From NCBI GenBank assembly GCA_017499595.2, contig CM039003.1:2790001-2854000 (forward strand): a stretch of DNA of 64,000 bases, in the 5' to 3' direction. The position numbers and the translations under genes are program-made. The notes beneath the pieces were generated by a model that was given only the letters and a program-made list of their open reading frames with translations, searched no databases and was not told the origin of the DNA. Source of the DNA: Psilocybe cubensis. Lineage: Eukaryota. Positions within the stretch are counted from its first letter, which is position 1; the number at the start of each line of letters is the position of its first letter. Shown here in pieces: positions 1-31,756 of the stretch.

Positions 1-1757
1 CAATCACTCCGTAACTCGCCATCTCCCGTTCTGAATGCTTGATTTGTCGTCTCGGCAACTCGTCACTGTGGGGACACGTCAAACATAATGACAGTGAGCT
101 CAGAAATCAAGTTAGCATCGATTCGAGGATATAAACCTACGGTTCAACATAGAATTATTAGCCTTTCATTTTTGACTGTAGCCTTGACGTATGATACCGT
201 ACTTGACTACAAGAACTCGTACAGTAGTTCTGAGTCGAATTTTTTGACACAACTTGCGGCTATGCGCACTCGAGTAACAAACATATTATTACCTCATTAT
301 TGTACAATATCCTGGGTTTGCGCTCAAAAAACATAGTAAAACCTAGATACCAATGTAATACACATATGGAATCCTCCAAACAGTCCAACAGATATCGATG
401 AAAATGTGAATTCTCTAAAAATGGACATGTTTGCCTCAAGTCCCGCCTGACCCATTCGCTAGTTTATTCGCAAAAAAGCATTTCAGATAGACTCCGAGGA
501 CCCTATAGAGGTAATATATTGTTGGTTCAAACGCACCTGACAATAATACAGCGCCCCATTCATGCTGTGAGCCGAGATAAAAGTGGCACCACATACATCT
601 CCTCCTCCCCCAAATCACAAAATTACATGACTGCAAACGTTTGCTGCATCTACCCAGCATTCAAACGTTACATAAAGGTACCCGGGACATCCGAAGTCAA
701 GATGTAAAGAAGCTTGATGAACGTTAATTGAAGTTGAACATGTATCAAAGTGATACATCTGTTTTAGACGTACCTGGGCACTAAACGAACAAATCCGGGT
801 CCGCGTTGGAGATTCTGGATAAAATCAAGTTACAGTTTGGAAGGATATATGCAAGATAAGATAAATAAACTACTCACACAACATCCAAATGAAAATTGAG
901 ACTGACATTCGTTAAGCGCCCAAACCGTCTCCGAGACGGTAATCTCGTATATTTCATTCATAGCGACTCTATTTCCTATGAATTCAGTCAGAAAACGATA
1001 CATTGTGAAGGGGTACAGGCTATAGACATGATCTGCAGAGCTACAGCCTTGCTCCATGAATTTTGCAAAGAGGATGACGAGAACAAGGGGATGCCATGTC
1101 ATCCAGCCTTGTCCTCCAGCTCCAAATCCGCGTTTCTAGCGTAAAAAAACGACTTCCTTGCATCTCGGGCGAGCATCACGTCATGCTGTCATCGGTAGAC
1201 ACATGCCGTGAACGTTTGTACGAGATTGGCGGAGACATTTTGAATGCGAGAATTTGTTGAATTGAAGATACGAAGGGTTACATACCTTTCATTTCGCCTC
1301 GATTTTGAGCCTGAACGGCAAATAGACGTTGGATTGAGTGTTCAGGACGCCTTCCAAGTCCAATGTAGCAAAGAGAATGAGTCTAGTACAAGAATTCAAA
1401 ATTTTTTGAATACTCGCCATAATGATTTTCATTGTCCTCCAACTCGTATTTTTCCAAATTCACTGTAATTGCGCATGCATGTGAGCTTAGTATAGCACAT
1501 GGTAGTAATACTTACCCATTCTATCACGATTACAGCCCACAGACAAACGTTGGACTCGACAACGTACTCGAAATGCCAAGTAACCCAGGCTTCTCCTCCT
1601 GCCCCATTTCGCCGTTTCACGACATTCCAAACGCCGTCTCTTCTGGAACACATGTGAGTATCTCTACATCTCACCATATGCATCCGGATGACGTGAGTTG
1701 GAATGCTAGGTAGATGGTTAATTAGTAGACTCGAGATTGAAGGGGAATGAAGGCACA
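1..1757. repeat. Left part of segmental-repeat copy 0 (homologous to ~28790-30549 and ~45745-47504)
   Basis: 1-~1140 aligns with clear divergence to ~28790-29930. ~1150-1757 is nearly identical to ~29945-30549 (identical ORF-track peptides at 1244/30036/46991). Confidence 0.9.
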
Positions 1758-1772
1758 CATCAGCAATACCGG
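1758..1772 (+). repeat. Left terminal inverted repeat
   Basis: CATCAGCAATACCGG matches the reverse complement of 20004-20018 (CATCAGTAAATCCGG) at 12/15 positions. Confidence 0.8.
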
Positions 1773-1970
1773 GGCCAAGTAGGTAATGATCCGTAGTGAT
1801 ACGTAATTCTGTAGTGCCCATAGTAACGGTCCCATTTGGGTAACACACACTGATGTACCTGTAGCTTGGTACCAACGCTGTCATGGTATCTGTATTGTAA
1901 CGCGAGTGCTGTGTAGCGGCGTGTAGCATGCTTACCATCCATACCCCTCTGTATACAACTGACATACAAA

Positions 1971-2062
1971 TTGTAGCATACTACCACAGATTTGTAGCAT
2001 GCTACCACAGATTTGTAGCATGCTACCACAGATTTGTAGCATGCTACCACAGATTTGTAGCA
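1971..2062 (+). repeat. Subterminal 21-bp tandem repeat (TTGTAGCATGCTACCACAGAT, ~4.4 copies)
   Basis: Directly visible. Core GTAGCATGCTAC is palindromic. TGTAGC also occurs at ~1860, ~1913 and ~1922, and inverted ATGCTACA occurs at 19888 and 19956. Confidence 0.9.
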
Positions 2063-2330
2063 CATCATAACACACTGCAAATAGGTACAAAGGCATATAT
2101 AGTATCCACTTTCATTTGTATAGTGTTGTGTGGCTATTCCTGCAAGTGCCAATATCACACTGAAAACCGAACCATTTTTGACTAAAATGGGCAATTTTAA
2201 AAATAGATAATCTATGTTTGGATCGGACCAAACATGTTTCTATTAGTAGATGCATAACTATTAATACGTGACGATCTAAATATGGTATCTTCTAATCCAC
2301 ACCCGGCAGCTGCCCCGCTCATTCACCCAA

Positions 2331-5072
2331 CTACCCTTCTGGACCGTAATCTAGTTCCTCCTGTGGGATAGAATGGAGAGTCATCCTATAAGGGTTGGGG
2401 GGGTTCTTCGTAGGCCTCATAATAGCACTGATTATGGAGATCTAAATGATGCAAAGAAAGAAATGAATAAAAAAAGATACACACCATCCTTCCTCAGCCA
2501 CTTCCCTACATAAGCAAGCCAAGCGAGGACCTTGGTTCAAGGTATCCTTCTCTGCCTCTGCTGCAACCAACATGCAGGCATCATACCTCAGGGAGTACTC
2601 CTCTCCCTTGAATTCAATACCCGAACACGGACCACCTCTTGCAGGGTCAATCCCATCCCTCCACTCCTCAAGACAGTTGTGGATCTACAGCAAAATGCTT
2701 GTTAGCAAGGCAGTGCCAATAGCAGGAGAGAAATCAGAACTACACAACTGGCCACAAGCGCAAATGCTTTGTGGGGAAGCGATGTCTTGAAGAAATCCGT
2801 CTTTGTCTCCAGACCTTTGATGGGGACTGCAACCCCTTTTGTAGGATGGTAGAAGAAGTCCAGACAGATCTTCTTCACAAAAGGATGTCCAAATGGGACA
2901 TCGTGATACTGGAAACAAATCAATGAGTGGTAAGCCAGGTAAAATGGACGGCGAACTCACTCGGGTTTTGGCAACACCCCGGTGGTATTTACCATTGAGT
3001 AGCCAATATGCTACCCTGTCCTTGATGTATTCGATCTCCCCCATCTGATTTTCAAACATATTGGGGTTCGCGGCGATGACCTCCGACGGGACTTCGAGGC
3101 CATACGCATTTTTGACCAGGGGTCTGATCATCGTCTTCAGTCTTCCCCGGAAGGTTGACGCGTAGACAAATGCCTAATGAGAACAGACACGTTAGTACAA
3201 TATCCTTAAAAGAACACGCTAAAAATATACCGTTACGGCGGTATTCCTGTCTAGGAGCGTTTTTTTCTCTGCAAAGTTATGTAAACCAATTAACTAAAAT
3301 CACAGAAGACAGAACTTACTATCAGGCAACACTTTATCCGTGTTCATTCTTTCAAACACGGTTACTGCCATCTTCACACATCCATCGGCGACTAATAAGT
3401 GATTTTCCCGAGTGGGAAAGGGGACCTCCTCTACTACATACAGGCACATCAGTTTGCGTGCAATTTTGAGCACATCTTTCCAGTAACCAGTAAAGGATGC
3501 AACTGAATGCTTGGATACTTCCCTAGCAGAAGAAGTACTGGACTTCTTATGAGCGATGTGTGCCTCACCAAGCACCTCATCATCGTCAGATGCTTCGTTG
3601 TTCTCCCTTGTCAAACCTTGGGATACGGCTCCTTGCGAAACAGCCGCCTTGCGCAATGCCTCAGGGCGAGGTGGCTTGTTCGCCCGATTACGACGACGGT
3701 GTTCTTGAAGAACATCCTCTACTTCCACAACCTATATCAATAATACATTAGCTAGACATTAAATACAGCAGAGAAATGATTACATGGGGGGAAGGCTGGC
3801 GGAGCAATGCCCTTGCTCTCCTCTCCTCTTCATCATCGGAAACTTCATCAACCACTGTCAAACATAGGTGGTAAGCAAACACGACATAAAGGTGGAGTTA
3901 AACCAACGCTGGGCAGCAGGCTCTTCATCATCTTGACCCGCGTCGTCGTAACCTTCATCACCGTCGACATATTGGAGAGCTTCTTCATCCCCAATATTCT
4001 CTTCATCAATTCCTTGCATGCATTCGTCCCCTGATGCTTCCTCAGATCGCCTTTCACCGTCACTATCCCCCTCTTCCTCCTCCTCATCTTCCTCCTGCTC
4101 TATGCCTTCGTAATCTTGTTGCTCCTCCTCGTCTTGATGGCTGATGCTAGCCTCTTGGTGGGCGTTATAGGCTGCTGGATGCACTGGCTGTTGTACGGGG
4201 GCATGTTGTGTTACAGGATGCACTGGTTGTTGTACGGGGGCATCGTAGTATTGGACAGAATTCTCTGCCGCAGGGGCAGCGTAACGCTGAACAGGATTTG
4301 CTGCGTGTTGTACAGGGCGCGGGACAGGATGTGCTGCATGTTGTACGGGGCGCGGGACAGGATGTGCTGGCTGTTGTACCGGAGCAGCGGGGCGCTGGAT
4401 GGGGGCAGTGGGTCTTTGGACAGCATGATCAAGCTCTGAGTGCTCCTGATTTCTCTGAGCTGCACGTTGGATCTGGACAGGAGGGGGGGCACCCTGAGAT
4501 TGTCGTGGGCTTGGTTGGACTTGTTGGACATCCCAAGGAGCAACTGAAGGCGTTGGCCTTGGTTGCATTTGAATAGGGGGACCTACATGCGACACAACGG
4601 TAACCTAGACGTGCTTGGAAGATAGCAAATTTAAGATTAGAACAGTAGACTCACCCCATTGCGAGGTTTCTTCAAGGGAGGCGCCATCTCATTTTCAGGC
4701 ATGGCGCTAGTATCCACATTGGCGGCCCTTGACTTCCTCTTCCCAGCCTTCTCGAAGTCAATAAAAATGATGTTAGATGTTTTCTCCTGCCGAGCATTTA
4801 CTCCACCAAGACCACGGGTGCTTCGGATAGGACGGCCATTGTGGTCTTTTTAATAAGGAGTTCAGTGAATCTCAACAAAGAAAATGCTAGTACAGACCTG
4901 CTTCAGGAGCCTGAGGTGGCTCGTTTTCTGCCACGGAGCTCGGACCCTGTTCAACCTCTTGTCCTAGATGGATAAAACATTAAGTATGCGGATGTAATGA
5001 GGATATATAGATGATACCTTCAACCGTGGCATTGACAACCGCCTTTTTCTTTTTGGATCCTTTAGGTGGCAT
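2331..5072 (-). CDS. Multi-exon hypothetical protein: basic N-terminus, Pro/Gln-rich and acidic middle, DUF6532-like C-terminal domain
   Basis: Starts MPPKGSKKKK (ATG 5072). GT-AG splicing joins ORFs 3858-4595, 3300-3728, 2685-3131 and 2702-2923. The C-terminal PFGHPFVKKICLDFFY...FALVASC IHNCLEEWRDG...F...Y...Y pattern resembles TE-associated DUF6532. Stop TAG at 2331-2333. Confidence 0.7.
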
Positions 5073-5343
5073 ATTGGGCTGGTTTGACGGTTGTAATGCA
5101 GAAATAGAGACAAGGGGTGGTGAATTATGTCAAGCTACGATCCGGAGGTATGCGAAATTAGCCTCTTTTCAAAATTTAAGGCGACGGACATCAGTCAAAA
5201 ATATATCGTGCCATATAGAAATTACAGGTACTGAAACAGTACCCCTATCTACTACAATATATCACATATACATTATAGTCAGATTCCATGTCCTACTTAG
5301 AGTTAAGTAAAGTTACATCTCAGAGGGGAAAAGACTGCACCTA

Positions 5344-5699
5344 TCATGATCGCGGATTATCCTGAGGGTGCATTAGAATAGGTATTCCCCGACTAATGAG
5401 GGATACCCGTAGACGGGCGATTTCGAGCTGGGTTTCAAACAGAAGATCTTCATTGGATTTATATGCTCGCATAATGTCGTCCATATAACAACGTAGCTCT
5501 GCCTGAACTTCTAGACACCTCTGTTCAGTGAGTTGAAATTGGTCAAGAGCCTTTTTAACGGCCTCTATGCCTTGATTCTAGAGGAAGGTGGATTAAAACA
5601 TGAAAATAGACCTAAAACGAAGAACTCTGCCTCTTCGGGTATGCTAGGGAGGCGGCGACTTTGAGGTTGCGAAGCGTTGTTGCTATTGGAATGGTTCAT
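5344..5699 (-). CDS. Small putative coiled-coil protein (~100 aa, one intron, donor uncertain)
   Basis: MNHSNSNNASQPQSRRLPSIPEE, then a pyrimidine-rich TAG acceptor and an open helical exon NQGIEAVKKALDQFQLTEQRCLEVQAELRCYMDDIMRAYKSNEDLLFETQLEIARLRV...*. Confidence 0.45.
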
Positions 5700-5866
5700 G
5701 ATAAAGATAGGCAACAATTTGGTGTGGTGGTGGTGGCTTAAGTTCAAGACGATCAACACATTACGAACCATTAGCACTGTTGATTGCCGAAATACACTTA
5801 AATAGAATGACATAAAACCCGTATATGTCTACAAGTCCGTGTTCGAGATACAAGTAATGCTGCACC

Positions 5867-8226
5867 CTACATATTTACAACTTTGACACCACGGGACGGG
5901 GGGAAGATTTGAATCAAAGATGTTGTCGGAAAAGTTGGGAATGTATCACCGCGTTTCATACGAGTAACGGGATATTTATGTACAACGCAAATATCCTTGT
6001 CTATTGATCGTATCCTGAATATAATCCCCATTGAATCGCCCTCAAGCGGTGTAACGAAGTCGTCCTTTTTTACAGGATGAATTGGAAACAACACTGATTT
6101 CGGTAATGTCAGTGTACGTCCCAGTAATGCTAGGTGGGCAGTATCGTCGGTAAGGCTGAGAAGTTCCATCGCCACTTGATGGTCGCCCTTGGATTTGTCT
6201 ACGACTTTTAATCGTAATCCTTTCAGCTTATCGTATTTCGTATCTAGCCAGTGAGCGACGGTTGAGGGTAGTTCTGCGATTTCCACCGCCGAGTGTACAG
6301 GTATTGCTGAATACGGATTCCATGCAGGAGACAGAAAACTTGCTACTGTGGACGGCATTGGAGTTGCTCCACCAGAAGGCCCGGGGTCTTGAGCGGAATT
6401 TATATGTTCTCGGTTGCTTGAAACAATGTCAGTAAGCACCTGACAGTCAACGAATCAAGTGAAACCACATACTGTATAATTAAATGTGATATTTTAATAC
6501 GTTCCACCCTCTGGTTACGAGCTTCCAGCTCAACGTCTGCAAAGCCGTCGGGGGTAGTGCTTTTAACGATGCCATAGTACCCCTTGAATGTATTATTCCC
6601 GACAACGATGACACTCAAACCTATATAGACGTCGTTGTGGTCTCTTTCTCCAAGCTTTGACGAATGACGCTTTCGCGGGCGAAGAGTAGCATGGGCAGGG
6701 GGGACGTAGAATATGACTGTGTGGATGGGCACAATGACCTGAAAAATGTGTTGAACACTACTGAGACAAAGAGAATGACAGTTCACCTACTTCGCGTTCG
6801 TGCTCTGGGGCGATAATACAAACAGATCTTCCATCAAAGTCTGACACCCATCCATGGAGATCTTTGTGATCCCCTTCAACGACTTCAACACTATCGCCTA
6901 TCTGGAAAGCTGCACGTAGATCGTGTAGTGCAACTGCTTGTGTTATACCTTGGGAGGGGATGTGCACTTCCACCTCAGCGTCAGAAACACTCTTGACCGT
7001 TCCAAAAAGACCTAAGTATTCTCCACCAATAATTTTGACTCGATCATATCGTTTCAGTCGAGTCATGGAGATGGCTTTCGAGGCTTGCGCTAAGGTCTCC
7101 GTCGTTACAAATGGACACTCGCGAAATTGCTCCAACTCGGACGATGTTGGGAGGACATTGGAAAGATATTTGAGATCAATGGCGTCGAAATCCGTGATAA
7201 TAAATCCATCCTGGAATATCCTGTCGAGGTGCGATTTCTTGATGTTGTCCGGAGGTCTGGGGATAAGAACAACACTTTTCCGACCCTGGAATGTGAACAC
7301 AAGGCCGGTAGCATTTGCGTAGGTCGTCCAAGCCTTACGCTTTCCAGCAACCTTGACCCACGATTGGTCTTCAGGGCGTGAGGGTGGGGGATGAGATAGG
7401 ATCTCCATACATCTCTCCGAGGATAGCCTAACTAAATGTGTCGGATTAAGCTCTCTAACGAGGCAGGCTAACGTATGCGCATGTTGCATTGATGGTGCCT
7501 CGACGTAGATTCTCCCAGGAATTGAGGATTGAGCGAAGACAGACCGGGCAAGGATGATGGGAAATGTAGGGTTCGTTGACATCTGCATAATTTTGAAAGC
7601 GACGGCCTCTTCGCGTCCAACCTATCACTCGTAAGGTGATCAATAAATGCTGACTGAAGACTTATATTATTTTTGCGTACCTTGCAACCTATTTCATACA
7701 TGATATCAGTCGCGGAAGGCATATAATTATTATCACCAAGTCCTCCTGGTTGGGGATTGCCATATTTCTGTATAAGTTCTCGTGAACTAGATGGCTCTAT
7801 ATCATTGTCAGGATGAATTTTCATGCGTGAAGGCAGAAGCATGGGCAACAAATCGCTCCATTCATCAGCGTTATCTGTATTTTGCATGGCATGATATAGC
7901 CGAGAGTGTGCAACACGTTCCTCATCCTCAGAGTATTCATCGTTATCATTCACTGTATGTCAGAACCCATTAGCATCAGTACATATTGAGCAGAATATAT
8001 GTAAATTATTGGAACATACGTAGTTGGCCCCCTTCATAATCAAGCTCTTCCGAACTTTCATCATCATCGGAAACCGCTGCTTCAATGTCTATGAAGGGAT
8101 TAATGTCCTGATTTTTTGAGATCATAATTAAATTTCCCTGAAGTTAGTGATTAGATGGAGGGTTGGATTAGTACACACTGTGCGGTTGCCTAGGCTGTCA
8201 AGTCGTCTGCGTTTATAACTAGACAT
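5867..8226 (-). CDS. Spt5/NusG-like transcription elongation factor homologue (acidic N-terminus, NGN domain, KOW domains)
   Basis: Spliced model: MSSYKRRRLD...NPFIDIEAAVSDDDESSEE (Spt5 N-terminal motif); PSATDIMYEIGCKVGREEAV...SVFAQSSIPGRIYVEA (NGN); KOW motifs YDRVKIIGGEYLGLFGTV, GDSVEVVEGDHKDLHGWV and GLSVIVVGNNTFKGYYGIV; short TP/SP patch (GATPMP...SPAWNP). Confidence 0.8.
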
Positions 8227-8330
8227 TGTGGGTCTTAAAGACTGTTAATCGATGTTCATCTCACTTAATTTATCATCTTAACTTGTGATAATTTATTTTT
8301 AGATACTACACAACCTATTACTATGATAAG

Positions 8331-8597
8331 ACGCTATGATGAACGGAAAGAGAAAACATATGGTGAGAAACACGCTATTTCCGGAGCGATTCTTTAGGGT
8401 AGGTTTCCCGTCCTGAAGTCACGAGTTGGTTAAAAAAACGCCCCCTTACATCAGCCGCATCACCGTGATGCGGCTGATGTAAGGGGGCGTTTTTTTAACC
8501 AACTCGTGACTTCAGGACGGGAAACCTACCCTAAAGAATCGCTCCGGAAATAGCGTGTTTCCAACTTGATTGTTTTTCTTTCCGTTCGTCATAGCGT
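8331..8597. repeat. Long palindrome: perfect 97-bp arms (8367-8463 / 8465-8561), 1-nt spacer, imperfect outer arms
   Basis: gaaacacgctatttccgg...gcatcac c gtgatgc...ccggaaatagcgtgtttc. Outer arms acgctatgatgaacggaaag (8331) and ctttccgttcgtcatagcgt (ends 8597). Confidence 0.97.
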
Positions 8598-8737
8598 AGT
8601 ACCCCTCCCCATAGATTTAACATACATTCTAATAAAATAGACATAGACAATACTCTAGACACTCTATAATAGTTTTCGTTCAGTTAAAATTCATCTAGTT
8701 GAAAATTTGAGACACCAGAAAAAAACACACAAAAAAA

Positions 8738-11700
8738 AGTAAGTACACAAAGAAATAGAATGCAGGGTGAGACATTGAAGTTTTGTAGTGCAAGCCCAGA
8801 AGATTTCCCCCGTTGCCCGACTCCAAGCTGAAGAAATTCTGGCGTTTCCCTTCGAAACGCAGGTCGTTCGTCAGACTCTGGAAAACATGTTGCCAGAGTC
8901 GCACCCACTCCGCGTAGGTCTTAATTGGATTGCCATTTATGGTACTAATATCAAGTTTCTGTAGAGGATGGTGGATTTCCTCCGACGATATGAGGACTTC
9001 ACCTTTTTGAATTACGATGTTTCATCATCGAGCATGCGAGCGGCCATCAAGTATAGGCAAAGCTTGGCTGCCCTTCAGAACAGCATCGTAGAGACACCCT
9101 GCGTAACCTCGGCTACATGGGAGCAGGCGGGTAGCTTATTTGCAGCATACCGTCTACTCGATCTCGTAGCGTTGTGGCCAGCAGCCTTTGGACCATCGTT
9201 GCCGGTGACCGTGCCCCTGAATGAAATACAGGCCAGCACAGGAACTAAGGAAATATTTTCACGGTTCAAGGTATGCGATCATGAAGTCACTCAATGTTAA
9301 TTCTTAATTTTCAAACAATTATTGTAGCTTGTAGATGACTTGAAGGACTGGCCGGCAATGCTCTGCTCTGCCAGGAAGCGCATCCTCAGAGCCGACTCTA
9401 AGTCGCACAGAAACATCAACACCCCTTCTATCAGTGACACGCCGTCATCCGCTTTCACCCAGGGCGGGCCCTCGGAATCAACGCTATTACTCTGTCTGGC
9501 GCGTAACCACTTCAAGGGTGTTGTGGGGAAAATAATCGGGAATGTGTACTGCGCCTCGCTACACTACCAAATCTTGTCAGGAATGCGCGGTATGAAGGAC
9601 GATGAACACATTCTACCAGACATTCCAACGGACACGGCTACTCTTGCAAATCTCTAGTAAGTTTTCTTTCCTCTATTCATTGATACAATCTGCTCAACAT
9701 ACCCTAGTGCAAGCGGCCATCCTGATGCTGCGTTGTTCCTCTCAGAGGTCACGCCATCTCATTTAAAAATTCCTCTGCATGTCGCCCTTTTCATATCCCC
9801 CATCCTTCTTTTTGTGAATAAATCTTGGTATTCTAAGAAATGTGACCGGGAGCAGCTGCTTAAAGTAGGTGTATCCACATCCTCCCAGTTTAACTTGGAT
9901 TAACGCACTCCTTTAGGCCTCAAAAGCGCTCGGTAATTGTCGCCCCCGTGTTCTGCGTGAAGTGGAGATGGAAATTTGGAAAATCATTGCAGCGCAAAAT
10001 TGCGACATCCAGTCAGCCTTATATAAACTTGTTATCTCAGACTGCTGGATGGAATGCGAGCGGGTAATTGCACAAGATCCCGCATTTCACTTTTTCATAT
10101 GTGTGTTCTACGTACTGTAACAAAATAACAATTTAAACTAATAATTGGCCAGCGTCAACGAGCAGCGCCGAGGTTACAGCAAATTCTAACCTAGCAAGGC
10201 GCAGCACTGAACCACACGGTAAGTTATAAGCAAAGTCTGCGTCAATTACATGATTTAAATCCGTTTAAAACAGCTCAACTTCAGACCGTTTCCCATCATG
10301 GTGAAAAAACCACCTGTGAAGGGTCCGACGCAGACGCGGAGGGTGACGATGATCACGAAGTGGACACGACGGAAATGGTCAGCATGGGTCAACGGGAGAA
10401 CGGGGACAATACGGTCCCTACCTCAAATATACAGCCTCCGGAAGACACGTCTTCAGTGGCTGGCAAGGATGTCAGCATGGGTCAACAGGAGAACGGGGAC
10501 AATACGGTCCCTACCTCAGATATACAGCCTCCGGAAGACACATCTTCGGTGGCTGGCAAGGATGTGCCCACGGACGAGCAACCTGGTTTGCCGCGGAGTG
10601 ATGATATTGGATCTGGTCTACTTCAGACTGAGAATACTGGGCCCTCAACTGCAGGGGATTGTGAGATGAACGTCGATCCGGAGCAAGCTGATGTCGACCA
10701 TCAAATGGAGGATGGTCCACATACCAATGGTCCAGAAAATTTGGGAGACGGCGGGGCTGGACAAGGAGCTGAAGGGTCTTCTGACGAGGCAAATCGTATG
10801 TCGGAAGTTCACGAGGGCGAAAAGCAGGGGCAAGACGGAGAACGACCCGACGAGGAGAACCGAATGTCAGAAGATGGTGAGGAGGAAAGGCCAGACGACA
10901 GTTCGTCGGACAATGAGACCGAGAAGCAGGGGCAAGGGGATGTTCCACCAGTCCAGGAGGACAGAATGTCGGTCGATGGAGAGGGGGTAGGCCCAGAGCA
11001 AAACAATGATTCCTCAGACATGGAGAGGAATACATTGGAAGACAGCCAAGGCGAAAAGGAGGGGGAGAACGCACCTCCTGCTCCTCTTATTTTGAGGATT
11101 CCTCCTGTTTCCCAGATAAACAGGAGCAAAAACACCACGGCTGACTCCTCTCAGAAAGGGAAAGGGAAGGGCCGGCAGGGCCTTTCCAAGCGGCCTCCCA
11201 AACGCAAGCCGACGCAGGCTACCGACACATTTGATTCGGACGACGACCTGTGTATTGATGTCGATCTGTACGACAGCAACACTACCCTTGATGTCGTCAG
11301 CACTCCGGAGAAGGTGTATGGCACCAAAGTTTGGTCCACCTACAACGGTCGTGGCCAACTTAAAAGTTTCTGCGTTGTTGCCCATGTAAGTCATTCTCAA
11401 TATTGATTTTTTCGTCATTTATTTATTCTCCAAACAAGAGTCAAGCCGACGTGGATCGTGTTGAAAGGGTTCTGGAATTGGTCGAGAATGACTACGTCGA
11501 TGGAGTTCCATTGCACATAGCACGTCCCGAAGAATCATGTTTTGCGGTATTCGACCGCAGCACCACGAAATCCATGTATCTGATGGAGTCTTTCTCTGAA
11601 AGGAACGTCGTCCTTATGTCTCCTTCTCAAGAGGAGTCTATTTCAACTTGCTCCGACGAGTTCTACAGCCAGGTACGTCGCCATATGGGTGATATGACGA

Positions 11701-13450
11701 GCACCAGGTCAATCCAAGGTGTGTTTCCTCTTCGATGTTTTGATTTTTCTTTCTGCGTCTCATGCTAATGGCCGTAACAGATATGTCGACCATGTCGTCT
11801 AACCCCATCGAGAGGATTAAGCGTGGGTCCCTCTCTCAGGTCATGGAAGCAGCGAGGATGAAAGGCAAAAGAGGAAAGATCCTCAATGCCCTCGACATCC
11901 CTTTACCTCATGCAGGCGCTCACTCTTTTGACTTGAGTACTGAGGCGGCTGCTCTTCGGGCTACATCTGGTAGCTGGAAGTATAGTACCCCCGTCCCATT
12001 TGGTGATATGTCGTGGGGACTCGTAGCTACAGAGGGGGCATTTTCAGATATCCATATCGATGCCAATGGTTTCTGTTCCTTCATCCAACCTCTTCATGGA
12101 CTGAAGCTGTGGATTATCATGTATCCCAGACGGTTGGATGTTGACCTTTCTTCTGACCGCCGTGTATTTCTGGGAGACAAGCTGGATTACGGGGAAACGC
12201 ACCACCAAGACTGGATTTACGAGGCGATTGTTCTCGATAACCAGTCAGAACTGTATGTGATTTTTGAATGTCCTACCCATTTGATTATATTGACGCTACT
12301 TTGAAAAACAGCTTCATGAGACCGAATACTCTACATATGGCGTATTCTATCTCCTCAGTGGTTTGCCGTGGCGGACATTTTTACTCCTCCACTTCCTTCG
12401 AAGAAACCCTGACAGGAATCATTCACTGTTTTACCGCTGGATACAGGGCAACGAATACGAATCATTCAACGTCCCGATTTTTCCTGCAGCAAACCATACA
12501 TTGGTTCTACAAGGTTTTGGTTGAAGGTGACAGCGACCCAGAAGGTATGAGGTTTTTTACCGTTTCCTACAAGATATCTGATTCTTTTCTTCTATTTTCT
12601 CTCAGATTTTTATGAAATGTACCATGTCCCATTCTACAGTACGCAGTCCGGATACTCGAGCTTGATAGCTCTGTGCGTGTGCATGATCTTGGCAAATGCG
12701 CTCGACTACGAGACCTATCGAAATCCCGATCAGATGTTCTCCACCAAGACTTCGGCACAGTTAGACGCATGGATGCGGTGGGATACCAACAGCCTGAGCA
12801 ACGAAGAGCGCAAGGCGTGCATCTTTGCCCGTGGCGAAGCCTTGGCTATTCTAGAGTGGCTATGTCATCGCACGAAGTCCATCCACTACATGATTGAGAC
12901 GGACAAAAACAAGGATGCACAAAATATCATGGCGACAGAAAAGTTCCATGAAATGATACTTTGCCGCTATGCCCGTATGATTCTAGCCTACGACGCAGAA
13001 GCCAAACATAACAACATTGGTGGTGCCCCTTGCTGTACCGACACCAGTTTGCTTTTTGTCCAGCTTCAGGGCGTCTGCAGCGGAGAATTGAACAAGGTTA
13101 TATGTCGCAGTATCGACCAGCTTCCTCGTTCCTCGGTCCCAAAGATGCTCAAGTTACCCGTAATCACTCTCATTGACTGTGATGCCTGTGCGGATTCCTC
13201 AACGCAATTGAGTAGGTGGACCAGTGTCTGCCTTTGGATATTCACTAACCACGTCACAAACTAGGAACTCCCAAGGAGATTCTGGAACTTGGTACGAGTG
13301 TGAGGGATAAACTGTATCTGGATGGCATGAAAGTCAAGCTGGAGAGCACAAATCTGAGTACGTGTGTTCGATTATGCCTTTACGTCGCAAATGCTTATCT
13401 CTTCATCAGAATCAGAGTCTGTTCCGCCTTCTAAACGACGGCGACTTTGA
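8738..13450 (+). CDS. Large multi-exon JmjC-domain (2OG-Fe(II) dioxygenase) protein with acidic low-complexity middle
   Basis: GT-AG splicing gives one continuous frame through ORFs 8968, 9340, 10360, 11403, 11762, 12268 and 12617. JmjC motifs GAFSDIHIDANGF...GLKLWII (HxD) and FMRPNTLH...CRGGHFY (distal His). Ends in NLS-like PPSKRRRL*. The start codon appears split A|TG by intron 8739-8788. Confidence 0.75.
10378..10563 (+). repeat. 93-bp in-frame tandem duplication (31 aa x2) inside the JmjC gene
   Basis: VSMGQ(R/Q)ENGDNTVPTS(N/D)IQPPEDTSSVAGKD repeated at 10378-10470 and 10471-10563. Confidence 0.95.
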
Positions 13451-13921
13451 TATTGTACAACACATTGACACACATCTTGATTTACATACATGCCATGTTT
13501 TATTTAGTACTGAAAGGCGTGTATGTCCTGTAACATAATGACGATTGTTTTATTATCTGTAGTTGTGTGCTGCTCGTATCGCCAGACCAATACGCAAATT
13601 CTCGCTGGGATGAAAGCTTCTGGCTTTACTGTAACTGCTGTGCGTTTGAATTTATCATCAAGGTCAATGAAATCAACTAACTTACGTTTGTTGATGCTTC
13701 TTCCACCCACTTCAAAAAATGTGTTAGTGTCTTTGTTCTGGTGCGTATATACAGTAAAGCTCTTCCGAAGCCCTCCTTGGATTGTACTACGGATTGGTTG
13801 AATACTAACCCATGTGAAATTTGTTTGTATTAACGGAGACATAATCAGATAACATTTATAGACCCACTGCACGTTACTGAACATTACATTATCAGTTTTT
13901 TTTTCGTATCTTCGCTTTTGT

Positions 13922-16900
13922 ATGAGTCGTTGTTTCAACATGGGAAAGGGCAAGGGCAAGAGAACTCAGGAAATCTGTGTGCGTTGTCCTCGATGCAACA
14001 AGCCATTCGCTAAGCATGCAGATGTCCAAAATCACATCAATCAACCAAAATCGGCATGTCGTTTTCAATATGAGAACGTTATGCATTTTCAGTCCAATCG
14101 TTCAAGCTCTACATCTAGATCAGCAACCCCCGTATCTCGAGACCCTTCTCCCGAAATTGGTAATTTTATGGAAGTGGACTATATCGACAATTTTCTTGGC
14201 GCGTCATCAGAGATGGAAGATGACCCACCCCCCAAGGCATCAAAATACAACTATCCGTACGTGAAGGAGGATTATAACGGGGCTGGAAGAGCATTTGGAA
14301 CAGGCCTTACATTCATGGATCAGCTCAAACAGGATCAATTCGAACCCCAGCGGGCGGAAAATTTGTACTATCCTTTTGCCTCGAAAGATGAATGGGAGCT
14401 CTCCCTGTTCCTACTTCGCTCTGACATGAGCGTAGGAATGCTGAATGATTTTTTGAAACTTGAACTGGTAATTGAGCGTACATTCCCATCATTATTTATT
14501 TCAGCTGAGTCGATCCCGTATAGATAAAAAAACTCAACTTGTCCTACAAGTCGGCAAAAGATCTACGCAACCGGGCAGAGATCCTTCCCTCTGGTCCGCA
14601 GTGGAAGAGTCAAACGATCATACCAGAAATACCAAGCAAAAATCAGCTAACGCTTTTTTACCGCGATGGATTGGAATGTATCAAGGCGCTTCTCATCAGT
14701 CCCTTGCTCCAAGATAGCATGCACTTTAGCCCATTCAAGCTCTTCGACAAGTGCAACGAGATGATGCGGGTATACACTGAGTGGTTTAGCGGTGACATTG
14801 CGCATTTTATGCAGGTTAGTAGCAATGCCTTTGTCCAAGTTTGACGACAGTATAACAAGGTTCCCAAGGACCAGCTCCCAAAAGGAGCAACACTTGTACC
14901 TCCTATTATTTCCACGGATAAAACCAACATTTCCAACATGACCGGAGGCCGTGTCGCCTACCCTGGCCTTATCAGCATTGCCAACATAATGATGAACGTT
15001 AGAAACAAATCGTCAAATCATTTATTCCTTCTTTTTGTTCTTCTTCCCATACCAAAGTTTCTTCATCGCTCCAAAGCTGTGAATGGGATGATGGCAGCAC
15101 GGCTATATCACCAGTGCATGGACATTGCTCTAGAATCGGTCAAACAAACTGCGAGGGTGGGAACCACCATGGCAGATGCATTGGGGAATAATCGTTTCTG
15201 CTTTACACCGCTTGCTGCCCTTATCGTTGATACTCCAGAATCTGCTCTGGCGGCTTGCGTCGCAGGATCCACATCCTCTGTGACGTTGGCACAATACGAG
15301 ACGTTTGGGGATTCCTTTCGCCACCCTTCCCGAACTGCAGATCATACAATCAACACCATCATGGCCATCAACAATGTTAAGCCCCCTAATCATCTCGAAC
15401 CATATCTAAAAGAAAGCAAAAAGCACCGTCTCAATGGGGTTCACCTACCGTTTTGGAGAGATTGGCCCTTGTCTGATCCTTCTGCATTCCTTACGCCTGA
15501 ACCCCTTCATCACTGGCACAAGATGTTCTGGGATCATGATGCAAAATGGTGCATTGCTGCAGTCGGAGGTTCCGAATTGGATTTTCGATTTTCGATTTTA
15601 CAGCACCGCACTGGTTTCCGACACTTCAAGGAAGGGATTTCTTCCTTGAAACAAGTGACCGGTAGGGAACATCGGGACGTTCAGCGATGCATTGTTGCTC
15701 TCATTGCAGACACAGTCAGTACACCCTTTATCTTAGCCATCCGGTCTCTGATGGACTTTCGGTATCTCGCACAATCTCAAACAATCTCCGAGGCAATGTG
15801 TCTCAGAATTGAGCAGGCACTGCAAGATTTCCATGCCAATAAACAAGCCATCCTTGACGCGGGAGCACGTCGAGGTAAAAAAAACAACCCAATTGATAAT
15901 TTCTATATTCCAAAACTCGAGTTTTTGCAAAGTGTAGTACACGCAATTAGACTAAATGGATGTGCAATCCAATGGTCTGCAGACACGACAGAGCATGCAC
16001 ATATCGAGGTGGTCAAAGCCCCTTCCAGTTCCAGCAATAATCAAAGATACGAGCCTCAAGTTTGTCGATACCTTGATCGTCGTGACAAATTGCGCAATTT
16101 CGATTTGTTTACAGCTATACGAGAAATGAGGATCGATTTTCGGGCTATACACTCTGCAACAATTACGGATGAGGAGGAGCAGGAGGAGGGGGATGAGGGG
16201 GAGGAAAACGGCGAGGTTGTGATGGACACAACGTCAGAACTTCTTTCAACAATCATGCCGATGACAACCTTTCAATCAGCAAAGTCCAATCGCATTGTGG
16301 ATTACTTCTACAAAGCTAGTCTCTATGAGCGTGGCGTATTGGAAGGCCCAGTCCCCTACAGAACATTTTCTTGCAGCAAAAACGTTGTTGCCCATTTATC
16401 TAGGGATGCTAGTTCCAAAAGATTGCATATCGACGAGGTTGCGAGCATTTTTAAAATTCCCGACCTACGACCAGCAATTGCCGATTATGTGTCACTCATC
16501 AATAAGGAATCAAATCCGAGACACACCAATTCTCGAGGTTATCACATCAAGGGGATAACTGGCAGGCGTGTTTCTCCTCCCGGTTGTCCGTTGCCGTATT
16601 CAAAACTTGAGGTATGGCATAAGGTCCGTATACAGTCGACTGCGTACCAATACCCTCATGAGATCCTGGAGGCAGTCACACTTAATGCATATCCGCCATC
16701 TAACAAACATCCTTTTGGATACTTCGATTCAGCAATCATAAACGTGGATGAATCTGAGGAGTGGCCTCGCAGCGGGCTTCAAGGTAGTACTTCTTGGTGA
16801 CTTTTTTCCGAACCCCGTTGACCAGCCAATATTGTAGGCCATTCTGTCGTCGACATTCGTATTATTTTTCGCATTGTCGGAGAGACACCCAGTACTGTGT

Positions 16901-17226
16901 CTCCCGATATTACTGGAAGATTTCTCGCATACGTCCAACGTTTTGAGGTTTTAAATCAGCCACAGTCTCTAGGTTCTGCGATCCGTGGACCTTACCCAGA
17001 GCCAATAACCGGCATGTATAAATTAAAACGAAGTCAACGTACAGATAACACCATTATGGGTGGAATTTTACCATTGAATCAAATACGCTCCCTGGTTGAT
17101 CTGGTCCCTCAGATGGGCGAGAAGGCAAGGCGAAGCCTTACTACACATAACAGTCATTCCACTAGCACCGAGTTCCGATTAAACAAATATTTTGACAAAG
17201 AACTCTATTTGGCCCTGTCATCATAA
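13922..17226 (+). CDS. Plavaka-family transposase (N-terminal CxxC-H-C zinc finger, catalytic core, DUF6830-like C-terminus), 3 introns
   Basis: Motifs CPRCNKPF...H...C, YYPFASKDEWEL, LFYRDGLECIKALL, RVYTEWFSGD, PPIISTDKT (catalytic D), VDTPE, EPLHHWHK, IPKLEFLQ and SADTTEHAHI (catalytic E). Exons join in frame. Confidence 0.88.
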
Positions 17227-17266
17227 CATATCCACCTCAGGAAACCCACAAAGTTTTCAATCCCTA

Positions 17267-17790
17267 ATGCACATTGCCACTCAAATTATCACCCAACACG
17301 CCGGCCTCGTTGTACACAAAGACGACTCGGATCAATATCAACAGCCGCTTCTCACCAGTCCCGCTTTCTCACACTGTATCATCGTCACCTACTGCATATC
17401 CCTCCATCCATCTCATCTCTGCAGAATCAAGTCGTTCTCGCTCATCTTCCGCTCACCACCGCCCAAACTCCAAAGGATTCTTCCCAGAGTGCCTCTTCCT
17501 CTAAACAAAAATTCGCCTCCAGTCTTGTCGGTCCGTCCTGTCCTCAATTAGCGCCCATCTTGCCGGAGATACTCACTTTATTTTTTCAATTCCATTGCAG
17601 ATTAAGCTGTCAGCACCTTATCTGAGATCTGGCGCCCTCAAGACATTCCCTCCCTATTTCTACCCACTGAAGTCCTTTGAGGATTGAGGACATCTGGAAA
17701 CATACTGCAGACAGCACTATGTTATCTCGAAGCCATTCGTCCCAAGGTTCCCAAAATTTGCAAGAGGAAAGCATTGGCCTCTCTCCCACA
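17267..17790 (+). pseudogene. Degenerate, internally deleted upstream duplicate of the cyclin gene
   Basis: ~17390-17660 is a diverged direct repeat of ~17820-18100. 17684-17780 encodes the cyclin-box fragment NILQTALCYLEAIRPKVPKI. It contains a stop (TGA ~17622) and frameshifts. Confidence 0.7.
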
Positions 17791-18910
17791 ATCCATACCT
17801 GCCATGCCTCTGTATCATTACCTACTGAATACCCCTCCATCCGTCTCATTTCTGCAGAATCAAGTCGTTCTCACTCATCTATTCCACCCACCACTGCGCA
17901 AATTCCAAAGGATTCTTCCCAGAGCGCCTCTTCTTCTAAACAAAAATTTTTTTCAAGGCTTGCCGGTCCGTCCTGTCCTCAATTAGCGCCCACCTTGCCA
18001 GAGATACTCACTTTATTTTTTAAATTCCATTGCAGATCAAGCTGTCAGCACCTTGTCCGAGATCTGGCACCCTCAGGATATTCCTTCCGTGTTCCTACCC
18101 CCCGCCAAAGTAGGGGGTAGCTCTTTTCCTCCTACTCATTCCCGTCCAACTTCCAAGCAGATCTCTTCCGATTTGCAATCCATAGCGTCTCATACACATC
18201 CAATACATCCACACAACAGTCATCCCTCCGTATCCGGCCATAACCCTTCCCCGACCCTCTTGCTTGCCTCGGGCACCAAATCCGATCAGATATTACCCCT
18301 CAAGTCTTTTGTTTATAAAGTCCTTCGCCACTCAAGGACATCTAAAAACGTACTGCAGATAGCACTATGTTATCTAGAATCCATTCGTCCCAAGGTCCCA
18401 CAGATTTTGCAAGAGGAAAACATTGGCATTCGCTCTTATGCTCAGCCCAAAAGCAGTATTCAGAAAGCTACCCCAGAAGAGCTGGCGATGGATGCTGAGC
18501 TTACTGCTCTTGAGAACTCCAGCAAGATCAACATCATCAATAATTTCATTGACAATTCTATGCAAACATTCCGTGTTGCCGATTCTGGTTCACAAGATCT
18601 GGCTGAATCGTGCATCTATCCACAAGACTCTCTGTCCAGCGTAGATGTGCAGGTCTCAACGGCTCCTCTTTCCACCACCCTTTCTTTGCCATCTCCCCTC
18701 CTGTGTCCCCGTAGAGCCTTTCTGGCATCCCTCATCCTGGCCTCCAAATTTTCACAAGAAAAGTGTTATTCTAACCGTGCTTGGGCAAGGTTATCTGGTC
18801 TCCCACCTCGTGAAATTGGTCGCTGCGAACGTGCCCTCGCACAAGCCTTGCAATGGCGACTCTGGGTCGGCAAATGCGCCTTTGGTGAGAGTGCTGCAAC
18901 TGCCACATAG
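17719..18910 (+). CDS. PCL/Pho80-family (Pcl5/Pas1-like) cyclin; start codon uncertain
   Basis: Cyclin box LPLKSFVYKVLRHSRTSKNVLQIALCYL...PSPLLCPRRAFLASLILASKFSQEKCYSNRAWARLSGLPPREIGRCERAL...LQWRLWV. Intron 17966-18035 gives KFFSRLADQAVSTLSEIWHPQDIP. Confidence 0.8.
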
Positions 18911-19154
18911 TCTCAATAAGTTTCAACTTTCACGACCGCGCCATGTAGTACGCATTCTCAATAATCACTCTTTTGCTTGCCACCACTACGCGCGCTCCTC
19001 CCGCATTCAGTTAGATAGGCATCTTCTTAGACTAGCCTAGAAAAATCTATAGAACTTTGTTTTACGTATACAGAACCCCTGAAGAATTTTTATACCCGCG
19101 AAGTTTGTTTTCAGCTTGAATTCCAACTACGACAAAGTGAGCGTATCACACACC

Positions 19155-19705
19155 ATGCAAATCATCAGCTATGAGGAAATTTTACGAATCGAAGCAGAAG
19201 TATTGGCCCCTACTTTCCCAGATCTAATACATCCTACAACTTTCCCAGAGGCCGCCTCACTTGCTTCTCAAAGACAGCAATACGACTTGGAAATGGCTCA
19301 GTTAGTTGAGCAGACCCAAAAAATGGTCCTTTTGACCGAGAACAGGCTGATACTGGCCATCCTGGCCCTTTTCAACGAAATTAACTGGACCACCCTGGAC
19401 CCAAGGTTACTATCGTTGGCTAAAGCCAAGATTACCGAGGGTGACCAGTGGCTCAAAGCACGAGCCGTGAGTTTTCTGTTTCTTCAAGTTTCAAGTTGAT
19501 ACTCTTGCTTAAGATAACTAGGAGGAGACACTTCGGGATGCAGACTCAGGCAGCCCCGAGCACATATTGACCCAAGGGATGTCCATTATAGCCAACGGCC
19601 AGATTCATATTCGAACGGTAGAGGTGAGTCACAGTGATAACTACTTTGTTTCTACACTTTCTTAGTAATGGGCAGGATCTCATACGAGAATGTCAGGATC
19701 ATTAA
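19155..19705 (+). CDS. Small alpha-helical hypothetical protein (~147 aa, 2 introns)
   Basis: MQIISYEEILRIEAEV...WLKARA|EETLRDADSG...IRTVE|DLIRECQDH*, with GTGAGT donors and in-frame AG acceptors. Confidence 0.6.
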
Positions 19706-20003
19706 TAGGGTCAAGATACTACATTGTAAATAGACACTTAATTGCCTTTAAAAATGTACATTTTATTGCTTGATATGATTGAAGAGCTTTACTGAGACCA
19801 ATCACATTGGACATCAAACTCTCCTAAGTCTGGAATCGTACATAGAGATAGCTAGGAAAATCCAAAGCTCGCAGTAGTAATGTTGGAATGCTACAGAGCT
19901 CAACGGAGCATCCCGCCGATGACACATGACGCTATACTGTCTACAGCCCACTTTGATGCTACATCCGGTTGGCAGGACAATACGTTGAGTTACCTCCGAA
20001 AAT

Positions 20004-20018
20004 CCGGATTTACTGATG
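20004..20018 (-). repeat. Right terminal inverted repeat
   Basis: CCGGATTTACTGATG followed by the CA TSD. Confidence 0.8.
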
Positions 20019-25242: not shown

Positions 25243-25258
25243 GTCCACAAGCGCTTAA
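23423..25258 (+). pseudogene. 5' fragment of ABCC/MRP transporter gene (copy 0), truncated
   Basis: Near-identical to 50936-52766. Homology breaks after ...KINNLV (25242), and the frame stops 5 codons later. Confidence 0.92.
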
Positions 25259-25392
25259 ATGCGCAGGTTTGTCTCGCTTGCTAGTTTTTCTGGCGAGTTT
25301 TGACTCGGTAGAGCGTGTTTAGATGATGAAATCTAATTATATCTCAAAAAAACAGCGTAGTCCATACAACACAACACCTTTCATTTATCGTA

Positions 25393-25437
25393 CAAGCAGA
25401 GGTTAGCCCCGCCCGAAGGCCAAGCAGGGGCGTAACC
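25393..25437 (-). mobile_element. Possible Helitron-like 3' terminus (GC hairpin followed by CTTG|T); second copy at 42348-42392
   Basis: Stem-loop ggttagcccc...ggggcgtaacc (25401-25437). The minus strand then reads tctgCTTG|T. No RepHel gene or 5' end identified. Confidence 0.3.
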
Positions 25438-26168
25438 GGTCTATCTACTGGTACAAAGACTTACCTCCAGGCTGTCATTCGTGATATCCTGTAACAAAAT
25501 GTGAATCAACGCGCATGAACAAGGTAAAACACTCACAAGGTAGTGGGTGCTTCGTGGGAACGGGCTCGCGGTCTGCGCAGATGTTGGGGAAGTGGTCGGG
25601 TATTCCGTGCACGGGCCATGGACGCGTCGACACGTATACACAAGTCCTGGCCGTCAGCCCAGGCAATATCTGCGAGGCAACACCATGAGACCGTAAGCAC
25701 GGCGGGTCGGGGGGCTTCTCTTGTGTCGCCAACAAGTCCCATGTACTTTGCGTCATTGCAAAGTGGACTACGTGTCTCTCCTTCAACAAGGCTTCTCTTC
25801 TTGGAATGCCGCTGCAGCAGAGTGCACGGGCCGTCGACTTGCACTACGTATCATCTGAAACTGCTGTTAGCATCCACTACATTTAATGTAAGAATATAAT
25901 ACGTACTTTTTAGACAAATTCTCTACCACCGGACGGCGATCTCTCAAACAACCTGCCCATGCCGCCGGATTTCCATATGTTGTGTCGTCGTCCTGGCGTC
26001 GAGTTCTGTGTCTAACGCCTAACCCTTGGATCGACAGTGGTATGGAGTCCGTACAAGGGACGTTCACAACTTCGTGATGTGGGACAAGGTGGGCGGCTCC
26101 TGGACTGGGTGATGACACAGAGCGACCACAGGACTTTGACAAGTCGCGTCGATACGTGTTCGCTGGTC

Positions 26169-31420: not shown

Positions 31421-31756
31421 ACGCGGACCTGAGTTCCTTGCATCACGGAGTTACATATGGACGCATCACAGCATGCTGGAATGAAAAGTAGACTGTTGAA
31501 TATTGAAGACGCACCACAATTGCAGGTGCCGTATGGTGCAATTAGGGTGATCGCCCCGGGTTGTCTATGTTTCCAGGGCAAATATCGGCACGTAAAGTGT
31601 TTAGTTTGATGTGAGAATGCCCAGAGATACTCTGAGCGAGCGATGGAGTGGATAACATAGCCCGGCAGAGACAGAGATTGACAGTTTAAAGCTCATGTAG
31701 CCATTAATCCGAGTTCCATAGCAGCAAAACATATGATTTTCAAGGCAAATCCACAA

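Follow-up and report, generated by a model that had tools for sequence, protein, structure and literature searches.

A shortened Spt5 paralogue carried by a PlavakaB transposon in Psilocybe cubensis

To our knowledge, no transcription factor other than Spt5/NusG is shared by all domains of life. In bacteria, specialised NusG/Spt5 paralogues are a textbook means of locus-specific control; in eukaryotes, we know of specialised Spt5 paralogues only as host genes. This analysis concerns a 64,000-nucleotide stretch of Psilocybe cubensis DNA (GenBank assembly GCA_017499595.2, contig CM039003.1, forward-strand positions 2,790,001 to 2,854,000), referred to as the window, whose own numbering is used throughout. 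Positions 5867-8226 encode an intact, shortened paralogue of the transcription elongation factor Spt5. The gene is carried, as an accessory gene, in the interior of a PlavakaB-type DNA transposon at 1758-20018 that is autonomous and multi-copy. PlavakaB elements belong to the CACTA/EnSpm-Mirage-Chapaev-Transib group.

The gene and its transposon

The Spt5-like gene lies on the minus strand and fills exactly the interval 5867-8226, where stop-to-stop open reading frames (ORFs) have been joined into one open frame. It has six exons and five GT..AG introns with lengths of 41-71 nt. With the acceptor chosen first, the introns measure 41-67 nt and the product has 694 amino acids (aa); moving the acceptor by 30 nt, to 8107, shortens the product to 684 aa. 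Both lengths are in line with the Spt5 model of about 700 aa that the initial annotation had proposed. The acceptor at 8107 is the choice of the database models for 98.8%-identical proteins, and with it the spacing from the basic patch to the N-P-F-I-D motif fits the family better. Exon 5 is backed by family homology.

The window product is 98.8% identical to the database proteins P0001 and P0152, and near-identical P. cubensis proteins, at this same identity, have been annotated on two different large contigs. The public gene models P0001, P0151 and P0152 are faulty, one locus having been cut into two genes (329 aa and 204 aa). Another public model, named 'Transcription elongation factor SPT5', leaves out exon 5 and with it the KOW5-like domain. 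The finding also corrects the database annotation, where such proteins bear the name of the SPT5 elongation factor or have been broken into fragments.

The surroundings of the gene are repeated in the window. Two other stretches, 29109-30549/30548 onward and 46064-47504/47503 onward, are each collinear with 301-1757 plus 20019 onward. Since 301-1757 runs straight into 20019 in the other two copies, 1758-20018 is an insertion. Its termini read CATCAG...CTGATG, and the junctions, with the element borders marked by slashes, read ...CA/CATCAG......CTGATG/CA.... The two empty paralogous sites in the window, 30548-30549 and 47503-47504, carry a single CA each. PlavakaB termini have been described as 5'-CATCA..TGATG-3' with a target duplication of 2-3 bp in the available text of Kojima 2025 (PMC12730594), and the window element agrees with this description in both respects. 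The transposase is recognised from an ORF at 14845-16800 (plus strand), which matches the Plavaka domain PF18759 (5.6e-64) and PF20722 (DUF6830; 4e-45), and from an ORF at 14524-14844 corresponding to the N-terminal third of PF18759 (1.1e-16). The plus-strand ORFs 10195-11406, 12551-13264 and 13862-14527 may be upstream transposase exons.

Raw genomic reads of two strains (runs X16 and X17), both of which differ from the window at fixed sites, were placed on the window. The left flank had a depth of ~79-fold in X16 and ~82-fold in X17, and the element interior a mean depth of 534-fold and 500-fold, the ratios to the left flank being 6.8 and 6.1. All 26 interior bins, including four over the Spt5-like gene, lay within a depth of 396-605. 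Loose read ends begin precisely at the two termini, in 224 and 194 reads at 1758 and in 341 and 376 reads at 20018. With a consensus agreement of no more than 0.37-0.42, they point to many different flanks. Within the Spt5-like gene, no listed indel is supported by as much as 10% of reads. The element is multi-copy with the Spt5-like gene aboard, in about seven near-identical copies. Termini, CA duplication, the two empty sites and read depth agree with one another, and the initial description of the gene as transposon-borne is confirmed.

That the gene might be the host's own or only Spt5, or a host paralogue beside a transposon, is extremely improbable. Annotators have given close copies the name of the elongation factor, and the canonical Spt5 of the same genome was not retrieved: a canonical-Spt5 profile search gave 745 matches, the best 120 of which are from plants and early-diverging fungi, none from Agaricales. 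However, the gene sits between the termini of an insertion flanked by a target-site duplication, the empty site of which occurs twice in the window, and it shows 6-7 times the flank depth, as does the rest of the element; neither is the behaviour of a single-copy host gene. The near-identical proteins on two different large contigs also speak against a host gene. In addition, a housekeeping role is very unlikely because the gene is multi-copy, because its product lacks the KOWx-KOW4 part and the C-terminal repeat (CTR) array, and because it belongs to a clade apart from 18 canonical Spt5 rows. Given the universality of Spt5, the same genome should also have a canonical one.

Two minority deletions were also seen in the reads. 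One, of 1374 bp (14202-15577), lies in the transposase and is carried by 27 and 22 reads; the other, of 85 bp (4154-4240), lies in a P/Q-rich ORF and occurs in both strains. These deletion forms are non-autonomous derivatives, and the Spt5-like gene region is still at full depth. Between the window copy and the X16 reads, 79 of the 98 listed change kinds are transitions, C>T and G>A together making up 48. This excess fits the deamination of methylated cytosines in repeated DNA.

Domain architecture and family

Pfam was run on the exon ORFs, and each match reported for them lies above its curated cut-off. Exon 4 carries KOW2_Spt5 (PF23284; 1.2e-13), KOW (PF00467; 9.4e-8), KOW5_SPT5 (PF23290; 1.7e-7) and Spt5-NGN (PF03439; 4.3e-5), the last just above its cut-off (23.8 bits versus 22.4). 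Exon 5 gives a further KOW5_SPT5 match (Table 1), and no Pfam family was found on the ORFs of exons 3 and 6. The N-terminal motif, composed of a basic patch, N-P-F-I-D-I-E-A-A-V and an acidic run, resembles by eye both the consensus of four canonical Spt5 and that of the family. Spt5_N (PF11942) gave no Pfam match on the exon-3 ORF, the short exon 2 not having been scanned on its own.

Searches of structures lead to the same protein. All 13 phmmer matches among PDB sequences are Spt5, and on Komagataella Spt5 the phmmer alignment reaches from the KOW1 insert across KOW2 to KOW3. Exon 4 was modelled with AlphaFold2 on an alignment of 28 relatives (A2), and the mean pLDDT (predicted local distance difference test) is 88.6. 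With this model, Foldseek found 49 PDB matches at E<=1e-3, the best at 9.4e-15. The best 24 are chains of RNA polymerase II (Pol II) elongation complexes, aligned over ~300-390 columns and the whole model length; chains named SPT5 among them are 5oik_Z, 9j0n_Z, 5xon_W and 6ir9_W, and 7nky_Z and 7nkx_Z, which likewise bear the name SPT5, rank 39 and 46. Exon 6 was modelled with 24 relatives (A3) and reached a pLDDT of 82.7 overall and >90 over residues 55-170, which form two beta-barrels. Among its PDB matches, 5ohq, a crystal structure of KOW6-KOW7 from human DSIF, ranks first (E 5.6e-6, TM (template modelling) score 0.73 on target). Next come KOW2-3 and KIN17-type tandem SH3 domains, and Tudor and Agenet tandems are weaker. 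The NGN and KOW folds that had been proposed for the protein are thus borne out by Pfam, by the models and by Foldseek.

The domains are arranged in the order basic patch and putative acidic N-terminal motif, NGN, KOW1-3, KOW5-like, one SPAWNP unit and a KOW6-7-like tandem. Canonical Spt5, the large subunit of DSIF, has these parts in the same order, the N-terminal motif agreeing by eye, and including a KOW1 with insert and units of the type [ST]PAW[ND], but reaches ~1000-1100 aa, compared with ~690 aa in the window protein. KOWx and a full KOW4 were not matched in the window exons, KOW4 giving only a sub-threshold overlap of 20 residues. About 50 residues separate KOW3 from the KOW5-like domain, which leaves no room for KOWx-KOW4. 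In the four canonical comparators, KOW1_SPT5, KOWx, KOW4 and Spt5_N are present, and the CTD repeat family is found in one.

The second difference concerns the CTR. The stretch that links the KOW5-like domain to the C-terminal tandem holds a T-P and a single SPAWNP. At the T-P site in A3 (25 rows), T18 is nearly invariant and P19 invariant, and a unit of the SPAW[DN] type is kept in 17 of 30 family rows, one of which has two. Ten canonical Spt5, fungal or unnamed, carry 2-6 [ST]PxW units with nine-residue spacing at the corresponding position, and three plant Spt5 carry none. The vestigial TP/SP patch noticed in the initial annotation is real and conserved, a single unit standing where the canonical fungal rows examined have 2-6. 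Judged from these alignments, the predicted architecture is that of an Spt5 minus KOWx-KOW4 and minus the repeat array, not of a random set of KOW domains.

The plant paralogue SPT5L works through Argonaute-binding GW/WG repeats. Only one such dipeptide, a GW, occurs in the 684-residue product, which is thus without Argonaute-hook repeats. This bears on the possibility that the protein is a silencing-type or self-limiting factor in the manner of plant SPT5L/KTF1 or Paramecium Spt5m, marking transposon or non-coding transcription for pathways of small RNA or chromatin and dampening or timing the element instead of promoting its activity. The specialised eukaryotic Spt5 paralogues described so far do act in transposon-related silencing or non-coding transcription, as given in the available text of PMC3111484, PMC5416832 and PMC8934623, and as lineage-specific paralogues devoted to such transcription they resemble the window protein. 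They are, however, host genes, and the repeats of SPT5L are absent here. Furthermore, about seven near-identical copies that look active would hardly persist if the gene silenced its own carrier. A silencing role is for these reasons distinctly unlikely.

The window protein belongs to a diverged family. An exhaustive HMMER search with exon 4 gave 360 proteins at E<=1e-3, 90 at <=1e-10 and 10 at <=1e-30. Among the best 150 of the 360, 137 score at least 20 bits higher on a family profile, trained on 28 of these same 137, than on a canonical profile of four Spt5; eight are canonical-like and five ambiguous. The 20 proteins looked up by name include members from Psilocybe, Cyclocybe, Agrocybe, Arthromyces, Tulosesus and Panaeolus. 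Several members occur per genome, each representing another 50%-identity cluster and often lying on short contigs. In the ESM Atlas, nine of the ten clusters shown are dominated by Basidiomycota, with 50-168 members and a best score of 0.95. NGN (PF03439) was matched in 29 of 39 long relatives. Word-based searches are too insensitive for so diverged a family: exon 4 found no longer proteins in this way, and the full-length relative P0007 found only itself and three canonical Spt5.

The tree was built from 100 rows, of which 84 cover at least 85% of the 306-position profile and 16 are canonical sequences cut to that region, rows of lower coverage being excluded. It was obtained by a quick IQ-TREE search (LG+G4) with support from the SH-aLRT (Shimodaira-Hasegawa-like approximate likelihood ratio test) only. 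One branch, with an SH-aLRT of 99, parts 82 family rows from 18 canonical Spt5 rows. With plants as outgroup, the family stands in an unresolved fork with early-diverging fungal Spt5, in a tree without canonical Spt5 of Dikarya. The tree thus places the family in a clade apart from all 18 canonical rows and, with KOWx-4 and the CTR array missing, sustains the earlier description of a streamlined paralogue. In 19 of the 39 columns that are near-invariant in the canonical rows, the residue is kept in at least 70% of family rows. By these comparisons the family is large, old and deeply diverged within Agaricales, and distinct from housekeeping Spt5.

A search with a single relative gave 11 metagenome loci. 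Eight metagenomic copies show 81-100% mutual identity and ~32% identity to the window protein, and a 326-codon frame is open in all eight. The ratio of nonsynonymous to synonymous substitution (dN/dS, Nei-Gojobori) was 0.26-0.64, with a median of ~0.31, over 26 informative pairs that are not independent of one another; two near-identical pairs were uninformative. These values indicate that the family is under moderate purifying selection.

They also bear on the explanation that the gene is a functionless passenger, a fragment of host Spt5 captured by the transposon. Capture of host gene fragments by CACTA-type elements is known, to the extent that the available sources describe it, and the loss of domains could be erosion. 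But identity to canonical Spt5 is low (E ~1e-8 to 1e-9 in the exon-4 search, where family members reach 1e-45), the family forms a deep, monophyletic group with respect to the canonical rows, and the whole architecture of N-terminal motif, single CTR unit and C-terminal tandem recurs in full-length members at 25-40% identity across genera. With frames open in all eight diverged copies and dN/dS well below 1, a passenger is improbable to a high degree.

Proposed function

The function favoured here, with modest confidence, is that of a transposon-encoded factor that would bind Pol II and escape CTR-based host control. The protein would enter the nucleus by means of its N-terminal basic patch and occupy the Spt5 site on Pol II, with NGN and KOW1 over the cleft and clamp, with KOW2-3, and with KOW5 near the RNA exit. 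Binding might take place with or without host Spt4, and host Spt5 would be displaced on some polymerases. Of 77 scanned ORFs of the element, which comprise those of at least 65 aa minus the ORFs over the Spt5-like gene and the transposase core, none resembled Spt4. As KOWx-4 and the CTR array have been lost and only one CTR unit is left, such polymerases would be uncoupled from CTR-dependent host control. The controls evaded could include the phospho-dependent recruitment of Paf1C/Rtf1 and of the capping enzyme, pausing and termination signals, and CTR-linked heterochromatin regulation. The element might benefit through sustained transcription of its long genes or through resistance to co-transcriptional silencing. 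Both element-specific recruitment, as of RfaH to its targets, and general competition have been considered.

A similar situation has been described for IncX conjugative plasmids, in which the RfaH-like NusG paralogues PrfaH and ActX activate transfer genes against H-NS-type silencing (available text of PMC11880322 and 10.64898/2026.02.23.707533). There, too, mobile DNA supplies a private paralogue of the universal NusG/Spt5 factor. Proteins of the RfaH type, however, are bacterial two-domain proteins with an ops-like DNA site for recruitment, and their homology to the fungal protein exists at the level of the NusG/Spt5 superfamily only. What defines RfaH is recruitment to a site in cis together with exclusion of the housekeeping factor. 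The comparison, which the initial annotation had drawn for a private elongation factor that could drive transcription through silenced chromatin or escape CTR control, is apt as an analogy. A bolder version of the proposal, in which a transposon family with its own Spt5 would form element-specific Pol II complexes that are recruited in cis, for example through the palindrome or the subterminal repeats, and ignore pausing, termination and heterochromatin cues, is considered unlikely.

Accessory genes of other kinds are known from related elements. As far as the available text goes, TET/JBP dioxygenases are known Plavaka/KDZ cargo (PMC12730594), and according to a 2025 preprint (10.1101/2025.02.11.637652) TET/JBP is the one accessory gene reported for basidiomycete Plavaka elements. 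Together with the VANC protein of VANDAL elements, they are examples of accessory genes that act on chromatin, plausibly against silencing (PMC12730594, 10.1101/2025.02.11.637652). The Spt5-like gene is comparable as a non-transposase gene kept in an autonomous DNA transposon. It differs in its protein family and in its presumed target, which is the polymerase rather than DNA methylation. No TET/JBP was found in the window element.

No description of a transposon-borne Spt5 was found in the literature searched, which did not include the founding Plavaka/KDZ paper (PMC3918813) and supplements. The terms Spt5, KOW and NGN do not occur in the available text of PMC12730594, nor do Spt5 and KOW in that of 10.1101/2025.02.11.637652 and PMC9674265. 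The sequences themselves are already public under automatic names; what appears to be new is a transposon-encoded Spt5, which combines the themes of specialised NusG/Spt5 paralogues and of chromatin-directed accessory genes.

Several observations weigh against the proposal of a Pol II-binding factor that escapes host control. For a core transcription factor, much stronger constraint than a dN/dS of ~0.3 would be expected. Of the 39 canonical near-invariant residues, the window copy retains 19, about half, and it has lost the G-D of KOW1, so that Pol II binding could be weakened. The copies in this species are ~99% identical and young, so that their intactness says little on selection here. A recruitment site in cis was not identified, the palindrome at 8331-8597 and the subterminal repeats being candidates only. 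The absence of Agaricales from the best canonical-profile matches also belongs here. Other points concern the setting of the relatives. A tblastn search for the window transposase in five long metagenomic loci (L001, L002, L007, L008 and L011) gave no match, and 10 neighbouring ORFs at metagenomic relatives gave one Pfam match, Helitron_like_N. The fused neighbours found among the 39 long relatives are Tet_JBP in one, weak RTC4-like domains in two and WD40 in one; as they differ, the family may reside on several element types or include host genes.

The fusions can be described further. P0006 carries a predicted Tet_JBP oxygenase fusion at ~1026-1110 (6e-7), and the C-termini of P0021 and P0033 are RTC4-like at ~1e-4, just below the cut-off. 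The Tet_JBP and RTC4-like fusions come from Agrocybe and Cyclocybe relatives. The fused parts of P0006, P0021, P0033 and P0098 have no counterpart in the window. The Tet_JBP and RTC4-like parts are probably merged neighbouring genes and hint at other combinations of accessory genes. In the metagenomic locus L011, positions 2100-10100 and 423-1874 consist of inverted and shuffled pieces, with 72-92% identity, of the ~11-kb L001 unit that bears the relative, and these pieces adjoin the Helitron_like_N ORF (8.4e-29). This suggests that L011 is a decayed or rearranged copy of repeated DNA. The association with Plavaka is firm for the window element. For the family as a whole, an association with transposons is suggested by copy number, short contigs, decayed or rearranged copies and the Tet_JBP link.

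Canonical Spt5 recruits the DNA-modifying enzyme AID to stalled polymerase. In a like manner, the window protein could be a tether, an adaptor on elongating Pol II that, without altering elongation, brings the transposase or transpososome to open, transcribed chromatin for the choice of target or couples excision to transcription. The domains that dock to Pol II are retained and the CTR regulatory platform is gone, as a tether would allow; the C-terminal tandem barrel also matches the Tudor and Agenet reader domains, at weaker scores, and in one relative a TET/JBP enzyme is fused to the protein or lies next to it. Against a tether, the accessory genes beside the relatives vary, which fits a general role in transcription or chromatin better than a partnership with one transposase. 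A complex prediction for the exon-6 tandem barrel and the transposase ORF scored 0.00, which is no verdict for or against binding. Altogether, a tethering function appears quite unlikely.

If the bolder version with recruitment in cis is true, eukaryotes would have an equivalent of the RfaH of plasmids, and transposons would have a new means of fighting silencing at the level of the polymerase. More generally, a eukaryotic transposon with an Spt5 of its own would show that mobile DNA can act directly on the elongation machinery, beyond DNA methylation as with TET/JBP and VANC. The protein would also represent a natural 'minimal Spt5' with NGN, KOW1-3, KOW5, one CTR unit and KOW6-7, which would allow tests of the role of KOWx-4 and of the CTR array in pausing, termination and heterochromatin.

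Other features of the element and the window

The features of the element are collected in Table 1.

Table 1. Positions of the Spt5-like gene, its predicted domains and further features of the transposon in the window
Feature	Position	Strand	Basis
Spt5-like gene, exons	8226-8179; 8107-8020 (or 8137-8020); 7952-7681; 7621-6791; 6738-6473; 6416-5867 including stop	-	
N-terminus: basic patch KRRR, then Spt5-type acidic motif	8020..8226	-	consensus-line comparison, without Pfam match
NGN domain, split by intron 7680-7622	7436..7704	-	PF03439; helix/strand pattern in AlphaFold2 model; Foldseek matches to Spt5
KOW1-like barrel with insert; Y-x-G-D-L motif degenerate in window copy	7061..7369	-	phmmer; AlphaFold2 model; column comparison
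KOW2 and KOW3	6791..7045	-	PF00467, PF23284; phmmer alignment to Komagataella Spt5 residues 408-571
KOW5-like domain (exon 5)	6505..6591	-	PF23290, 1.9e-6
Single CTR-like unit: conserved T-P, then SPAWNP	6311..6364	-	alignment A3; unit count
C-terminal tandem beta-barrel, KOW6-KOW7-like	5906..6253	-	AlphaFold2 model; Foldseek
Complete PlavakaB-type (CACTA/EnSpm-like) DNA transposon, 18,261 bp	1758..20018	+ (by transposase gene)	collinearity; termini; read loose ends
Target-site duplication CA, left copy	1756..1757	.	junction sequence
Target-site duplication CA, right copy	20019..20020	.	junction sequence
Transposase core: Plavaka domain and DUF6830	14524..16800	+	PF18759, PF20722
Subterminal tandem array, 21-bp unit with TGTAGC	1950..2075	+	
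DUF6532-like ORF	2688..3173	-	PF20149, 7.2e-5, 23.2 bits versus cut-off 24, sub-threshold
P/Q-rich, acidic ORF, 248 aa, without family	3858..4604	-	
ORF of 307 aa, sub-threshold cyclin-like matches only	17987..18910	+	
Palindrome, 267 bp, 133-nt arms, 93% complementary	8331..8597	.	

Downstream of the Spt5-like gene and on the same strand, a third element gene is probable within 2445-5828, to judge from its ORFs. It would include the exon at 2688-3173, and the ORF at 3858-4604 may be part of it. PF20149 (DUF6532) was matched by two of the 77 element ORFs. A coiled-coil-looking ORF at 5344-5577, on the minus strand, lies within the same interval.

Subterminal repeats that bind the transposase are a feature of CACTA elements. 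In the window element, TGTAGC occurs in nine forward copies, eight of them no more than 300 bp from the left end, and in six reverse copies, two of them no more than 130 bp from the right end. By analogy, these repeats are putative transposase-binding sites.

The palindrome separates the Spt5-like gene, whose ATG lies ~105 bp downstream of it, from the divergently oriented transposase gene. The centre of the palindrome repeats the terminal words CATCAG/CTGATG. Variant joints occur in the reads, for example from 8304 to 8474, skipping 169 bp, in ~10 reads per run. The 31-nt centre was considered as a miniature Plavaka and rejected, the question being undecidable with flanks that are themselves palindromic.

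A tandem array with a unit of ~10.5 kb covers 20019-30547, 30548-47502 and, in part, 47503-52766, the units being 97-99% alike. A more diverged piece (87%) is present at 301-1757, and the Plavaka element sits within one unit. No Pfam family was found in the 206-aa ORFs of the tandem unit (40243-40863 and 50800-51420). The second unit contains an apparently intact Ty3/Gypsy-type long terminal repeat (LTR) retrotransposon at 31757-38149. Its 300-bp LTRs (31757-32056 and 37700-37999) are identical. Two minus-strand ORFs are present, gag at 36085-37236 and pol at 32207-36103, the latter 1298 aa long and including protease, reverse transcriptase, RNase H, integrase and chromodomain.

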